The notes beneath the pieces are model-generated. The model saw nothing but the letters and a program-made list of their open reading frames with translations. It was not told the origin of the DNA and made no database searches. Positions 50,511-56,521 of a stretch of 64,000 nt of DNA are shown here, one piece after another. Each line of letters opens with the position of its first letter. Within the stretch, counting starts at the first letter, position 1. This stretch comes from Allosphingosinicella sp. (GTDB taxonomy: Bacteria > Pseudomonadota > Alphaproteobacteria > Sphingomonadales > Sphingomonadaceae). The position numbers were made by a program, and so were the translations under genes. The DNA lies in assembly GCF_046295735.1 (NCBI RefSeq), contig NZ_JBKBMQ010000001.1, forward strand, positions 207,254-271,253, written 5' to 3'.

Positions 50511-52241
50511 CTAGGCGGGGGTTTCTTCCGGGGCCGGCTCGCATGAAGCGGGGAGGCCGCGCGACGGTGCGAGGCCTTCGCGGCGCATCAGGACGGCGAC
50601 GGTGCCGAAACGGGCGACCTCGCCATAGCGGTCGGCGATGAAGCGGTCGAGCAGGCACACGCCGGAGCTGATCGCGCTTTCGTTCGGCTCCTCGACGTCC
50701 GCATAGATGCTGTCGAGCAGGACCCAGCGCACGTCGTTGGCGATGAGGTCGGCGACGATGTCCCTCTGGACCTCCTCCGTGGTCTGGAGCCCCGGTTCCA
50801 GATGGTACCAATTGGTCGCCGGGCGCCGGCCGCTGAAGAAATAGAGCGCGACATTGTTGATGTAGATCCGGTCGTGCCGCGCGGCGCCGACGAAGACCGG
50901 CTCGTCGGGGCGGCTGTGAGCGGCGAGGAAACAGGCGGCGCGATAGGTGTCGGCGCTGACGACGCCGAGGCCGAGATCGACCCGTGCGGCGCAGCGTTCG
51001 TCGCGGAGGGCGGCGGGCGGGCCGCGCAGGACCTGGGACGGAAACGCCGCCTCGAACCCGGAGCGTGCGTCCGCCCTCAGCGCCGAGAGCCCGCTCGCCA
51101 GGATCAGCAGCGACGCCGCGCCGAGGACGGCGAGCGTCGGCAGCTGCAGCTTGCGGCCGGCGGTCCGGCTCGCCAGGAACACCAGCAGGATCATCGCCGG
51201 TATCAGCGCCAACACCGAGTGAATGAAGGAGACGCGGACGATGCCCTTCAATGCGAACAGCCCGATCATCAGCAGCAAGGCGACGGCCAGAGCGGCGCCG
51301 GCGCCGAACCCGGCGCGGCCCGGCCCGCGCGGCTTCGTGCCGAGCAGCCAGGCGAGGCCCAGGGCCGCGGCGAGGAAGGGCACGTATACGATGAGCGGCA
51401 GCAGGGAGGACAGGGAAGGGCCCGGCACCGGCCATGGCAGGCTGCGCATGCGGGCATAGTTGGCCGGCGGGAAGGCGACGATGTCGTGGAAGAAGCCGGG
51501 GATCGCGCCGACCGCCAGAGCGGCGGCGGCCACCGGCAGGAAGACGATGGAAATGCCGACGCCGTAGACGAAGACCTGCCGCGCCAGCAGGCGGAACGGC
51601 GCGCGTTCGGCATAGGCGATGAAGGCGAGCGCCAGGACATGGGCGGCGAGCAGGAAGAATCCGATGTCGTAGCGGAAGAGAGCGGTGACCCCCGTTAGCA
51701 TGCCGGCGGCGACCGTGCGGCCCGCCCTGGCGTCCCGCATCGCGCCATCATGGAAGAGGAGCAAGGTGCCGGCCAGCGCGCACAGGATAGACGGGTAGAC
51801 CGGATAGAGGAAGAAGCGGGCGGCGACGAAGACGGCGGCCTGGATCGCCATCACGGCGACGACGAGGCTCGGGCGCAGGCCCATGCGGCGCGCGGCGAGA
51901 CCGCTCAGCAGCACAATCCCGACCCGGACAGCGATGTCGTAAATGCGGGCGACGGCGACCGATTCCCCGAAAACGGAGAACAGGCCGGACACGACCCAAA
52001 GCTGCATCGGACCGTAGATCCAGAAGAAGTCCCGGTGCGGCACCTGCCCCGCGCCGACCTGGACCGCGCCCTGCAGGACGAGCGCCTCGTCGTAGATGCC
52101 GACTTCCATATTCATCAGGAGCAGGAAGACCGCGCCGCTGGCGAGCGCCAGCAGGACGATCCAGGTCGTCGACAAGGGTTTGCCGGCGGCCGACAGATAG
52201 TCGTCGAGGCGTGCCTTGGCTTGCTTCGCCCGTGTCAGCAT
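50511..52241 (-). CDS. GT-C fold (polyprenol-phosphate-sugar dependent) glycosyltransferase
   Basis: TM1 followed by YDE, then G.VPHRDFFWIYGP; about 11-12 TMs; FRYDIG; C-terminal periplasmic domain. Confidence 0.72.
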   Translation of the reverse strand: MLTRAKQAKARLDDYLSAAGKPLSTTWIVLLALASGAVFLLLMNMEVGIYDEALVLQGAVQVGAGQVPHRDFFWIYGPMQLWVVSGLFSVFGESVAVARIYDIAVRVGIVLLSGLAARRMGLRPSLVVAVMAIQAAVFVAARFFLYPVYPSILCALAGTLLLFHDGAMRDARAGRTVAAGMLTGVTALFRYDIGFFLLAAHVLALAFIAYAERAPFRLLARQVFVYGVGISIVFLPVAAAALAVGAIPGFFHDIVAFPPANYARMRSLPWPVPGPSLSSLLPLIVYVPFLAAALGLAWLLGTKPRGPGRAGFGAGAALAVALLLMIGLFALKGIVRVSFIHSVLALIPAMILLVFLASRTAGRKLQLPTLAVLGAASLLILASGLSALRADARSGFEAAFPSQVLRGPPAALRDERCAARVDLGLGVVSADTYRAACFLAAHSRPDEPVFVGAARHDRIYINNVALYFFSGRRPATNWYHLEPGLQTTEEVQRDIVADLIANDVRWVLLDSIYADVEEPNESAISSGVCLLDRFIADRYGEVARFGTVAVLMRREGLAPSRGLPASCEPAPEETPA

Positions 52242-52515
52242 TGGCCGATCGTCTCCAGACAGTGCGCGGCCCTGCCGCGAAGCTTTTCTTCCCTCGCGGC
52301 GGGGTCCGGGATTCGGTGGCCGCCTAGACGAGGGCGCGGTGGCGGGCAAGCGGCGCGGCCGGGGGGCGGGCGGCGCGGAGGGCTCGCCAAAGCGGTTGCT
52401 TTCAGGCGCGCACATGCCCTAGAGGCGTCGCCGACACCTGCCGCGGGCCGGGTCGACACTCCTTTTTTGCAGCCTCTCGGCCCTCGGCGGCGACAGCGGA
52501 GGACGGAGCCGCGTT

Positions 52516-54456: not shown

Positions 54457-55793
54457 CGCCCTTCCAGACCTGTCGCGACACGCTGGTCAGCTTCGACGGC
54501 GGCGAGCGCAGCAGCGTGGAGGTCGCGCGTCCCGACAAGCTGCGCTTCTGGAGCGAGCGGGACTGGCGGGCGATGCCGGCGGCGATTTCGCGGGGCGCCG
54601 GGCTTTCCTACGCCGCCGCCTCGTTCGGCGCCGGGGCGGTCAGCATCGAGCATGCTTATTACAACCGCATCCTCGCCTTCGACGAGCGGACCGGCGAGCT
54701 GACGGTGGAGGCGGGCGCCGACCTGTGGACCTGCCAGCACTTCCTGCTCTCCCGCGGCTTCTATCTCCCCTGCCATCCGGGGCACGGCCGGATCACGATC
54801 GGCGGCTGCGTGGCGGCCGACGTCCACGGCAAGAATCCCTGGCGCGACGGCACCTTCTCCGCCCAGGTGCGGGGGCTGACGCTGCTGCATCCCGATCACG
54901 GCCTTCTGACGCTCAGCCGCGACTCGAACGCCGATCTGCTGGCGCTGACCTGCGGCGCCTATGGCCTGACCGGCCATGTGCTGACCGTGACCCTGGCGGC
55001 GCGGGCGCTGGAATCGCCGGGCCTGAGGCTCACCCGCCGCGCCTTCGACAGCCTTGCGGAGGCGTTCGACGACCTGCGCCGCGCGGTGCGGACCGCCGAC
55101 TTCGCTTATTCCTGGCACGACCTTTCGTCCAAGCGGGGCACCCACTTCATCTTCTCCGCGGCCGCCGATCCCGACGCGCCGCCCTACGCGCCCGGCCAGG
55201 GATCGGAGCCGCCGCCCTTGCCCGCCGCGAGCCGGCGGCGCTCGCCGGTCGGCTTCTACAACCGGGCGAGCCTCCCGCTGCTGAACGCCGCCTACAAGTG
55301 GAAGACGCGCCGCTTCCGGGAAGCGCGGCCGATCGGCATGATCGACGCCCTGTTCCCGATCCACGGATCGGAAATCTATTTCTCGCTCTACGGCCGGAAG
55401 GGCTTTCACGAATATCAGGCGCTGGTCCCGCCCGACCGAGCCGTCGCGTTCGTCGAGCGGGTCAGGCGCGGCGCCGCGAAGCGCGGCGTGGCGATCGCCT
55501 TGTGCTCGGCCAAGGCGTTCGGCGGAGAGGGGCGGTTCCTGCGCTTCGCCGGAGAGGGCATCGCAATCGCCTTCAACTTCCCGCGCGGCCGCGGCGGGGC
55601 GGCGCTGATGGCCGACATCGACGCCGTCGTCATGGAGCTCGGCGGCAAGCCCAACATCGCCAAGGACAGCCGCCTGCCGGCCGACGTCGCCCGGGCCTGC
55701 TATCCGGGCCATGAGGCGTTCCGCGCCGAGCTGCTCCGCTTCGATCCCCGGCGGCGCATCCGCTCGTCCTTGTCGGAAAGGCTGCAACTGTGA
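54453..55793 (+). CDS. DprE1-like FAD-dependent oxidoreductase
   Basis: ISRGAGLSY, IGGCVAADVHGKN, GAYGLTG, AKDSR motifs match the DprE1 family; GTGA coupling. Confidence 0.85.
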   Translation: MTPFQTCRDTLVSFDGGERSSVEVARPDKLRFWSERDWRAMPAAISRGAGLSYAAASFGAGAVSIEHAYYNRILAFDERTGELTVEAGADLWTCQHFLLSRGFYLPCHPGHGRITIGGCVAADVHGKNPWRDGTFSAQVRGLTLLHPDHGLLTLSRDSNADLLALTCGAYGLTGHVLTVTLAARALESPGLRLTRRAFDSLAEAFDDLRRAVRTADFAYSWHDLSSKRGTHFIFSAAADPDAPPYAPGQGSEPPPLPAASRRRSPVGFYNRASLPLLNAAYKWKTRRFREARPIGMIDALFPIHGSEIYFSLYGRKGFHEYQALVPPDRAVAFVERVRRGAAKRGVAIALCSAKAFGGEGRFLRFAGEGIAIAFNFPRGRGGAALMADIDAVVMELGGKPNIAKDSRLPADVARACYPGHEAFRAELLRFDPRRRIRSSLSERLQL

Positions 55794-56521
55794 CGGCGGT
55801 GGTGGTGGGCGCGAGTTCGGGCCTGGGCCGCGCCTTGTGCGAGGAGCTCGCCGCGCGCGGGCGCGACGTGGTGATCGTCGCCGGCCACATGGAAGATTGC
55901 GCGCGGCTGGCGGCCCACCTTCGCCTGCTGCACGGCGTGAAGGCGCTGCCCATCGCGGTCGACGCGCGCGACCCGGCCGCGTTCCGCGAGGGGCTGGCGC
56001 GCGGCTTGGAGGGCGTGGGGCCGGTCACCGACCTGTTCCTGCCGATGGGGGCGGCGTCCGACGAGGACCGGATCGGCGAGGCGGCGCGGGTCCTCCAGCC
56101 CGTCTGGCAGGTCAACTATGCGGCGGTGGTCGCGGCCGTCGAGCTCGTCCGGCCGCTGATGGCGCCGGGCGGCGGGCGGGTCGTGGGCTTCGGATCGATC
56201 GCCGCCGTCCGCGCGCGCAACCGGAACGTGCAATATGCCGCGGCCAAGGCGGCGCTCTCCACCTATTTCGAAGGGCTGCGGCACGCTTTGGCGCCGGAGA
56301 AGTGCACGGGGCAATTCTACGTCGTCGGCTACATCGCCAGCGGCCAGAGCTTCGGCAAGACGCAGCTCTTCCCGCCGATGCCGGCCCGCCGCGCGGCGCG
56401 CTCCGTCCTGAACGACGGCGCGCGGGATTTCGGGAGCCGTTTCCTGCCCCGCTACTGGGCGCTGGTGGCGGCCGCGCTGCGCTGCCTGCCCTGGCCGCTC
56501 TTCTCGCGGATGCAATTCTAG
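55790..56521 (+). CDS. DprE2-like short-chain dehydrogenase
   Basis: VVGASSGLG, SIAAVRARNRNVQYAAAK (DprE2-like RxRxxNxxY...K); GTGA coupling. Confidence 0.82.
   Translation: MTAVVVGASSGLGRALCEELAARGRDVVIVAGHMEDCARLAAHLRLLHGVKALPIAVDARDPAAFREGLARGLEGVGPVTDLFLPMGAASDEDRIGEAARVLQPVWQVNYAAVVAAVELVRPLMAPGGGRVVGFGSIAAVRARNRNVQYAAAKAALSTYFEGLRHALAPEKCTGQFYVVGYIASGQSFGKTQLFPPMPARRAARSVLNDGARDFGSRFLPRYWALVAAALRCLPWPLFSRMQF

Follow-up and report, generated by a model that had tools for sequence, protein, structure and literature searches.

A five-gene cassette at positions 50511-56521 of the 64-kb stretch of DNA analysed here (the window; G000:C1:207254-271253), from the genome of an Allosphingosinicella species, probably encodes a self-contained periplasmic glycosylation module, in which a GtrB/ArnC-type loader of glycosyltransferase family 2 (GT2) would be combined with a two-step epimerase of the DprE1/DprE2 type. 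An earlier note on this DNA had proposed that the GT2, and not a phosphoribosyl pyrophosphate (PRPP) transferase, feeds the DprE1/DprE2-like pair, and that the product is flipped and used by a GT-C glycosyltransferase. Comparative genomics supports this reading best, through a gene triad (GT2, DprE1-like, DprE2-like) whose order is conserved across phyla, a DprE1-like clade that is never adjacent to a polyprenyl-phosphoribose synthase (PPPRS), and triad carriers whose genomes lack PPPRS altogether. What is directly observed is the identity of the genes, the folds and catalytic motifs of their products, the translational coupling and, across genomes, a conserved module that is independent of PPPRS. 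The source genome (3.24 Mb, ca. 70% GC, 28 contigs) is a hot-spring metagenome-assembled genome (MAG), and the sequence runs containing the window sequence are of metagenomic DNA only; RNA runs were looked for and none was found. The cassette is composed as follows:

50511..52241, minus strand: glycosyltransferase of GT-C fold, 576 aa from the ATG at 52241 (AlphaFold2 model and Foldseek)
52516..53451, plus strand: flippase-like membrane protein of the LPG_synthase_TM / MprF flippase-domain family (PF03706, TIGR00374)
53518..54456, plus strand: GtrB/ArnC/DPMS-type GT2 with two C-terminal transmembrane helices (PF00535, 5EKP alignment)
54453..55793, plus strand: DprE1-like FAD-dependent oxidase, 446 aa (FAD_binding_4, NF053785)
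55790..56521, plus strand: short-chain dehydrogenase/reductase (SDR) in the DprE2 position, 243 aa, GTG start (adh_short, NF053786)

The five open reading frames (ORFs) are real at these coordinates, with a coding-type G+C content at third codon positions (GC3 0.86-0.94), and with their domain matches they confirm the set that had been proposed, i.e. flippase-like, GT2, DprE1-like, DprE2-like and divergent GT-C genes. The DprE1-like gene starts at the GTG at 54453, which overlaps the GT2 stop, correcting the first in-frame start at 54237, and the GT-C ORF, open to 52415, most likely starts at the ATG at 52241. The description of the plus-strand genes as one coupled run holds for the GT2, DprE1-like and SDR genes, joined by 4-base GTGA stop/start overlaps, but not for the flippase-like gene, which is separated from the GT2 by 66 bp and hence is not translationally coupled to it.

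Concerning the loader, the GT2 matches PF00535 (1e-22) and, among NCBIfam models, best PgfS (2.5e-30) and ArnC (1e-25), both far under their cut-offs; it fails the named equivalogs (PgfS 106 bits against 500, ArnC 90 against 529 and PpgS 18 against 370). Its residues 6-294 align with residues 27-322 of GtrB 5EKP (1e-28), including the IDVDcEDPPE motif and both C-terminal transmembrane helices, and it also aligns end to end with ArnC structures (1.7e-22, 2-301). The GT-A domain, acidic metal-binding motif and C-terminal helices of a polyprenyl-phosphate glycosyltransferase are all found, and the protein would load a nucleoside diphosphate (NDP) sugar onto undecaprenyl phosphate. The flippase-like protein matches PF03706 at 4.2e-37 (128.7 bits, gathering score 33.4) and TIGR00374 at 1e-17, and its homologues adjoin the triad in loci L014, L015, L017, L018, L143 and L145; a solved relative was sought and none was found. 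It is a candidate flippase for the polyprenyl-phosphate sugar.

The DprE1-like protein matches FAD_binding_4 (PF01565, 1.8e-12) and the DprE1 model NF053785 (3.3e-54) over model positions 40-449 of 449, with 185 bits, below the 500-bit equivalog cut-off, as is the case in all module-bearing genomes (17/17). The top PDB match is DprE1 of Mycobacterium tuberculosis (Mtb), at 1e-27 and full length (residues 43-446). Equivalents of His132, Lys134, Gln336 and Lys418 (Mtb numbering) are kept in the motifs DVHGKN, YQ and AKDSR and are invariant in the subfamily, and the replacements include Gln334 to Glu and Cys387 to Ala, the latter position being the benzothiazinone site, which is dispensable for catalysis. 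We infer that this enzyme oxidises the C2 hydroxyl of a lipid-linked sugar. The SDR (adh_short, 3e-25) shows the GASSGLG and YAAAK motifs in its translation and matches the DprE2 model NF053786 over its full length (8e-18, 65 bits, cut-off 250). The Gly-rich NAD(P) motif, the YxxxK motif and the GTGA overlap with the DprE1-like stop are as in an enzyme in the DprE2 position, where it would reduce the 2-keto intermediate.

The DprE1-like protein has homologues of 43-82% identity in many proteobacteria and in metagenomes, and when 185,579 species genomes were scanned with a pattern, 80 loci with DprE1-like relatives came out, from many phyla. About 20 loci, the window's own subclade, have a GT2 orthologue (45-76% identity) directly 5' and an SDR gene directly 3' of the DprE1-like gene; these triad loci span Pseudomonadota, Verrucomicrobiota, Acidobacteriota, Planctomycetota and Melainabacteria, and in related loci the SDR always stands immediately 3' of the DprE1-like gene. 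PPPRS was sought within 10 kb of the 80 loci by tblastn and with a hidden Markov model from 32 PPPRS sequences, and no UbiA or PPPRS gene was found at any of them (0/80). In a maximum-likelihood tree, a branch with 100% SH-aLRT support splits 10 PPPRS-linked or second-copy canonical DprE1 sequences from 84 others, the window's included.

Two further arrangements occur in the tree. A second subclade (L048, L051, L053, L054, L057, L061, L062, L067, L068 and L080; Halieaceae, Casimicrobiaceae and others) has the gene order LPG_synthase_TM, DprE1-like, SDR and divergent GT2, and in a 31-member Dokdonella/Lysobacterales subclade neither a GT2 nor a flippase-like gene nor a PPPRS was detected within 10 kb of the DprE1-like/SDR pair.

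The phyletic distribution was analysed in a sample of 401 Pseudomonadota genomes, in which canonical-like DprE1 was defined by E-values from 1e-27 to 1e-49 and window-clade members by E <= 1e-70. Canonical-like DprE1 is present in 50 genomes, 45 of which have PPPRS, mostly adjacent, against one of the six with the window clade, namely the source genome itself (Fisher p = 3.6e-4). This 1/6 is indistinguishable from the PPPRS background in genomes without any DprE1 (23/345). Seven of 19 other triad genomes have no PPPRS genome-wide at E <= 1e-8: Usitatibacter palustris, whose genome is complete, Bradyrhizobium sp. Ai1a-2, an isolate, and five MAGs. Across genomes the GT2 module is independent of PPPRS, and the canonical pathway cannot be deduced simply from finding a PPPRS at another place in the genome.

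The neighbours of the module point to its probable donor. Loci L014, L015 and L017 have in common a C-methyltransferase gene of the Methyltransf_13/14 families, together with genes for a nucleotidyltransferase, a 4,6-dehydratase, a reductase and an RmlC-like cupin, and window positions 1-4383 carry the same set, with 55-78% identity to that of L014:

3583..4383, minus strand: glucose-1-phosphate cytidylyltransferase-like (TIGR02623 5.8e-80, 268 bits, below the 300 cut-off; 77% to the L014 gene)
2528..3598, minus strand: CDP-glucose 4,6-dehydratase (TIGR02622 2.5e-128, 428 bits, above the 278 cut-off; 69% to the L014 gene)
1972..2517, minus strand: RmlC-type 3,5-epimerase, a cupin (TIGR01221 2.2e-46, 158 bits, just above the 155.75 cut-off; 68% to L014)
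746..1975, minus strand: sugar C-methyltransferase of the TylC3/TcaB9 type (78.5% to the L014 gene, which has Methyltransf_13 and Methyltransf_14)
1..794, running past the window start, minus strand: NAD-dependent sugar reductase, probably a 4-ketoreductase (55% to the L014 'Epimerase'-family gene)

As judged from these families, the five-gene product should be cytidine diphosphate (CDP)-6-deoxy-3-C-methyl-hexose. At L014, L015, L017, L018, L020, L022, L023, L143 and L144 the whole set is found no more than 10 kb from the module; L019 has part of it, and so has L145, where the sequence ends. Loci with both sets, at least 10 in all, belong to alpha-, beta- and gammaproteobacteria, Verrucomicrobiota and Acidobacteriota, i.e. 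three phyla, and in the 10-kb neighbourhoods of the other DprE1-like loci the sugar set was never found. A compact case is the ten-gene island of Gymnodinialimonas hymeniacidonis (L143:1737-12108), which has housekeeping flanks and holds the five sugar genes and five module genes (GT-C, LPG_synthase_TM, GT2, DprE1-like and SDR); since no other glycosyltransferase (no Leloir enzyme) was found in it, the CDP-sugar has no evident consumer there apart from the GT2. In Usitatibacter, sugar and module genes are interleaved across two operons, one with the nucleotidyltransferase, the dehydratase and then the DprE1-like gene, the other with the GT2 together with the reductase and the RmlC-like gene. 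Of 17 module genomes, 14 have a C-methyltransferase homologue, while among the other Sphingomonadales the figure is 22 of 300 (p = 2e-12). The link of sugar set to module is strong, one-way and not obligatory.

In the source genome, the sugar genes are embedded in a Wza/Wzc/Wzy/Wzx polysaccharide cluster. As read by eye from the translations, this Wzx/Wzy-type cluster covers window positions 1-11390 and, upstream, C1:194334-207253, with Wza-like, Wzc-like and O-antigen-ligase-like genes, GT1 and GT2 genes, Wzx, rmlA/B/C and a CapD-like gene. The acceptor glycan is likely to be a product of this cluster.

Put together, the proposed mechanism would run in five steps. The genes at 1-4383 would make CDP-6-deoxy-3-C-methyl-hexose, whose hexose the GT2 would move to undecaprenyl phosphate at the cytoplasmic face; the DprE1-like flavoenzyme would then oxidise the C2 hydroxyl, adjacent to the anomeric carbon, and the coupled SDR would reduce the ketone from the opposite face, giving the C2 epimer still on the lipid. 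The LPG_synthase_TM protein would flip this lipid-linked sugar, and the divergent GT-C would transfer it to a surface glycan, probably the Wzx/Wzy-type polysaccharide encoded at the window start. The lipid-linked substrate, the oxidised position, the identity of the donor, the role of the flippase and the acceptor are predictions from sequence, as is the placing of the reaction on the lipid rather than on the nucleotide sugar. Our own chemical reasoning is that the methyl-bearing, tertiary C3 blocks C2 inversion at the nucleotide-sugar stage; by analogy with DprE1/DprE2, oxidation and reduction beside the anomeric phosphate would be a solution to this. That a pathway of about ten genes, found across phyla, makes the C2 epimer of 6-deoxy-3-C-methyl-hexose on undecaprenyl phosphate is put forward tentatively, with somewhat less than even confidence.

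The claim that no UbiA-type PRPP transferase is present holds for the cassette and for the window, but not for the genome, which has three UbiA-family genes. One is haem O synthase (confirmed by its family model), the second is by its sequence a 4-hydroxybenzoate prenyltransferase, and the third, at G000:C6:66498-67946, encodes a 482-aa HAD-UbiA fusion (NF006088 511 bits, cut-off 351) whose UbiA half best matches decaprenyl-phosphate phosphoribosyltransferase (DPPR synthase, 1.4e-48). ORF15 of Citrobacter youngae, a polyprenyl phosphoribose synthase, is built in the same way (PMC11127046). The C6 locus (C6:66498-71119) consists of this PPPRS, a 431-aa membrane protein, a 125-aa EamA/SMR-like protein and a 483-aa GT-C with a weak PMT_2 match; no epimerase gene was found in the run, which adjoins a sigma-54 activator and flagellar genes (fliD, fliS, flhB, fliPQ). 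A second DprE1-like gene was sought in the genome and none was found. The earlier note had named, as what would speak against it, a PRPP transferase elsewhere in the genome together with a dispensable GT2; the first of these now exists, on contig C6 with its own flippase and GT-C genes, which is one half of that objection.

Several findings weigh against a GT2-fed pair or against the proposed donor. The C6 PPPRS and the sole DprE1-like gene, taken alone, favour supply of the pair by the PPPRS, and cross-feeding is possible because the genome has a PPPRS and no other DprE1-like gene. PPPRS is also present in 11 of the 19 other module genomes, about half of them without a second DprE1, a count that is not treated as a test, the background rate in Melainabacteria and Planctomycetota being unmeasured. 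Five or six genomes, like the source genome, have PPPRS and the triad copy alone, and Gymnodinialimonas carries both PPPRS and the module. In G257, a relative of the window's GT-C (35% identity, 534 aa) is encoded some 4 kb away from a PPPRS gene, and GT-C enzymes of this family may also serve pentofuranose systems. Generic SDR models outscore the DprE2 model on the SDR, which by score is not specifically DprE2-like, and the gene order is compatible with redox chemistry either before or after lipid loading. Finally, the sugar set is found without the module in at least eight Sphingomonadales, the C-methyltransferase is missing from three of the 17 module genomes, which are of the Melainabacteria type, and in the source genome 46 kb separate sugar set and cassette. 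In favour of independence from PPPRS, on the other hand, second DprE1 copies do occur: G308 has a canonical one adjacent to PPPRS, and G311 and G317 have higher-scoring ones, canonical by score, that are not PPPRS-adjacent.

The PPPRS findings bear on a split canonical pathway, in which the C6 PPPRS would make undecaprenyl-phosphate-ribofuranose, the window pair would turn it into undecaprenyl-phosphate-arabinofuranose, GT-C enzymes would add arabinofuranose, and the GT2 would load an unrelated second sugar. Such a pathway was to be expected once the PPPRS was found: besides the synthase, the C6 locus has two GT-C-like genes and one that is ArnE/SMR-like, yet it lacks an epimerase, the genome offers a single DprE1-like gene, the combination of PPPRS and triad recurs in Gymnodinialimonas and several MAGs, and the GT-C of a described system accepts various pentofuranoses, with gain or loss of the epimerase changing the sugar (Kelly et al. 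2024, PMC11127046). Phyletic and synteny tests disfavour it. The window's DprE1 clade is never PPPRS-linked and coexists with PPPRS in one of six sampled genomes, and the module is found in genomes without PPPRS, including the complete one of Usitatibacter palustris. Among 301 Sphingomonadales genomes scored for the HAD-UbiA fusion and for a DprE1-like gene, 24 have the fusion and seven a DprE1-like gene, and 17 of the 24 have the fusion and no DprE1; epimerase-less, ribofuranose-type PPPRS systems thus appear to be commoner in this order than arabinofuranose-type ones. The six other Sphingomonadales DprE1 proteins have ca. 30% identity to the window's, and five of them adjoin the fusion in the canonical arrangement, i.e. 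where relatives use an epimerase, it is this other DprE1 beside PPPRS. G057, G143, G218 and G209 have a fusion 66-73% identical to that of C6 in a syntenic locus, where GT-C genes and a counterpart of the small C6 membrane protein (72-78% identity) adjoin it, and these genomes have no DprE1. Because such loci are syntenic and occur in relatives without any DprE1, the C6 type of locus works without an epimerase, and cross-feeding from it is unlikely; it is presumably a ribofuranose system, by analogy with that of C. youngae O1. On these grounds we give the split pathway a very low probability.

The conserved gene order bears on a second alternative, in which the redox pair would invert C2 of soluble CDP-6-deoxy-3-C-methyl-hexose and the GT2 would then load the finished sugar. 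Here too the tertiary alcohol at C3, which puts C2 beyond the usual 4-keto/enolisation chemistry, gives the pair something to do, and the pair is strongly linked to the CDP-sugar genes, with the Usitatibacter DprE1-like gene lying in a nucleotidyltransferase/dehydratase run and the GT2 elsewhere. The VAO/PCMH flavoenzyme fold also includes oxidases of soluble substrates, which are among the lower PDB matches. The nearest characterised full-length relative is nevertheless DprE1, which acts on a lipid-linked sugar; GT2 and DprE1-like genes are adjacent and overlapping at most loci; and melainabacterial members have the triad but no C-methyltransferase. Epimerisation before loading is hence considered unlikely, and epimerisation on the lipid is retained.

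The same melainabacterial genomes, three of 17 module genomes without the C-methyltransferase, can be read in favour of a third alternative, in which a common sugar (glucose, galactose, xylose or uronic acid, from a uridine diphosphate (UDP) sugar) would be remodelled on the lipid, the product of which may be a keto-sugar instead of an epimer, and the CDP-C-methyl-sugar genes would build the acceptor only. The placement of the sugar set inside the Wzx/Wzy cluster, 46 kb from the cassette, and its module-free occurrence in other Sphingomonadales agree with this. It has to contend with the Gymnodinialimonas island, which offers no alternative glycosyltransferase for the CDP-sugar, with the interleaving of both gene sets in Usitatibacter, and with their adjacency in three phyla. 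We assign it a low probability and keep the CDP-C-methyl-sugar as the probable donor of the GT2-fed module.

The divergent GT-C gene has no match in Pfam or NCBIfam. Its 13 homologues (28-65% identity), one of which matches PMT_2 and several of which share a contig with DprE1-like homologues, were used for an AlphaFold2 model (pLDDT 78, pTM 0.82). In a Foldseek search of the PDB this model finds ArnT 5f15 first (E 5.5e-7, TM-score 0.52-0.55), followed by AftA, DPY19, AftD, PglB and EmbB; because it matches ArnT, AftA, DPY19, AftD and PglB, the protein at 50511-52241 is assigned to the GT-C fold. Y50-D51-E52, behind the first transmembrane helix, are invariant and provide the acidic motif of the first outer loop that marks GT-C enzymes. 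The protein is a predicted periplasmic transferase that would use a lipid-linked sugar. The protein is homologous to the GT-C of the Gymnodinialimonas island (E 4.5e-47), and tblastn against the related loci gave mostly no match, the GT-C partner of the triad varying among at least three unrelated families.

Some loci show further membrane proteins or other contexts. In L015 (Sulfuriferula), L144 (Bradyrhizobium Ai1a-2) and L145 (Herminiimonas), a membrane protein of ca. 615 aa, with no Pfam match, precedes the triad and overlaps the GT2 start, and there is a second conserved membrane protein of ca. 630-660 aa; both are unrelated to the window GT-C by sequence. These three loci lie within ABC-transporter (Wzt) O-antigen clusters that carry a giant WsaF-like glycosyltransferase. 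At L135 (G257:C3:93000-111000), the 35%-identical GT-C gene and the PPPRS gene stand at ca. 3788 (minus strand) and 7967 (plus strand), and the DprE1/SDR pair of that genome is on a different contig.

The cassette is flanked by two palindromic elements, both read from the sequence:

50445..50492, strand not assigned: long hairpin (GGGACAGTCCCCATTTT...AAAATGGGGACTGTCCC) with a T-run, at the 3' end of the GT-C gene
56560..56582, strand not assigned: palindrome AAATAGGGACTGTCCCTATTT, immediately past the SDR stop

The first is a bidirectional terminator-like element by its sequence, in which the palindromes at 50445 and 50482 pair as the arms of a single long hairpin; the second seems to be a terminator-like element of the same family that ends the operon. 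The core of the 23-base palindrome AAAATAGGGACWGTCCCTATTTT occurs nine times genome-wide, against about five expected from our own base-composition estimate, and on this count palindromes were rejected as island borders or ends of a mobile element. Further copies are found at C1:339133, 346169 and 356000 and at C8:116580, and six copies, that at 56565 included, have A-rich/T-rich flanks, unusual at 70% GC. The palindrome looks like a shared bidirectional terminator or protein-binding site, and not an island border.

Immediately upstream of the cassette, the G+C content dips to 0.63 at 48000-50500, against ca. 0.70, in a region holding a 235-aa ORF (48423-49130), with no Pfam or NCBIfam match, and two small overlapping ORFs; the dip may have been left behind when the cassette was introduced or moved. 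The insertion site was compared with the same-genus genomes G208 and G261, in which the flanking heparinase II/III-like gene is unmatched, so that island boundaries are not definable; no DprE1-like gene, PPPRS or C-methyltransferase was found in these two genomes.

To our knowledge, DprE1/DprE2, a drug target in tuberculosis, are known almost only as the mycobacterial ribose-to-arabinose epimerase and its PRPP-fed relatives. The full-text literature searched gave no description of a GT2-coupled DprE1-like pair and nothing relevant on lipid-linked C-methyl sugars, and such a module goes unmentioned in those portions of the Coxiella virenose papers that were searched. If the proposed pathway is true, a hexopyranose would for the first time be seen to undergo DprE1/DprE2-type epimerisation, and a GtrB-type periplasmic glycosylation system would for the first time be found to include a redox epimerase, a fourth component of such systems. 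A large sister clade of DprE1 wired to GT2 would make lipid-linked redox epimerisation a general route of surface-sugar diversification, with a testable origin for rare branched deoxy-sugars of envelope glycans and new enzymes for glycoengineering.

The mycobacterial decaprenyl-phosphoryl-arabinose (DPA) pathway comprises the DPPR synthase Rv3806c, the phosphatase Rv3807c, DprE1/DprE2, Rv3789 and the GT-C enzymes of the Aft/Emb group. Cassette and DPA pathway both have FAD oxidase and SDR reductase genes side by side and GT-C enzymes that use, or in the cassette would use, a lipid-linked donor outside the membrane, and the cassette oxidase is a full-length DprE1 homologue with the catalytic Lys, His and Gln kept. 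In contrast to the UbiA enzyme with PRPP, the cassette loader is a GT2 that would take a nucleotide sugar, and no phosphatase would be required. The oxidase belongs to a separate clade, reaches 185 against 500 bits and lacks Cys387; the sugar is probably a 6-deoxy-C-methyl-hexose instead of ribofuranose, and the flippase candidate is of MprF type instead of SMR.

A second comparison is with three-component pentofuranose systems, as described for Citrobacter youngae O1/O2, with ORF15 (PRP-PPPRS), ORF14 (MATE), ORF12 (GT136) and an optional ORF13 epimerase (PMC11127046). The C6 locus, with its HAD-UbiA fusion, small flippase and GT-C genes, is a member of this group. The cassette shares the general plan of a lipid-phosphate-sugar synthase, a flippase, a GT-C and an auxiliary epimerase that would act after loading, but it has no PPPRS, its loader is of GtrB type, and epimerisation would fall to a DprE1/E2-type pair linked with the GT2. 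Kelly et al. (2024) contrast PPPRS with GtrB-type loaders as unrelated, and state that they are aware of no further epimerases among side-chain glycosylation systems (PMC11127046).

The GtrA/GtrB/GtrC pathway of O-antigen glucosylation and the Arn pathway of lipid A modification resemble the cassette in their loader, since the cassette GT2 belongs to the family of GtrB and ArnC and aligns with both from end to end, and in the flipping and GT-C transfer that would follow, ArnT being the structure nearest to the cassette GT-C model. The ArnC/ArnD/ArnE-F/ArnT pathway also modifies its sugar on undecaprenyl phosphate, through deformylation by ArnD, whereas the cassette modification would be a redox epimerisation by flavoenzyme and SDR. 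The flippase candidate comes from a different family, and the donor is probably a CDP-sugar, against the UDP-sugars of the Gtr and Arn systems. By analogy with these systems, the cassette would join the loader and GT-C logic of the Gtr/Arn group to the epimerase of the mycobacterial DPA pathway.

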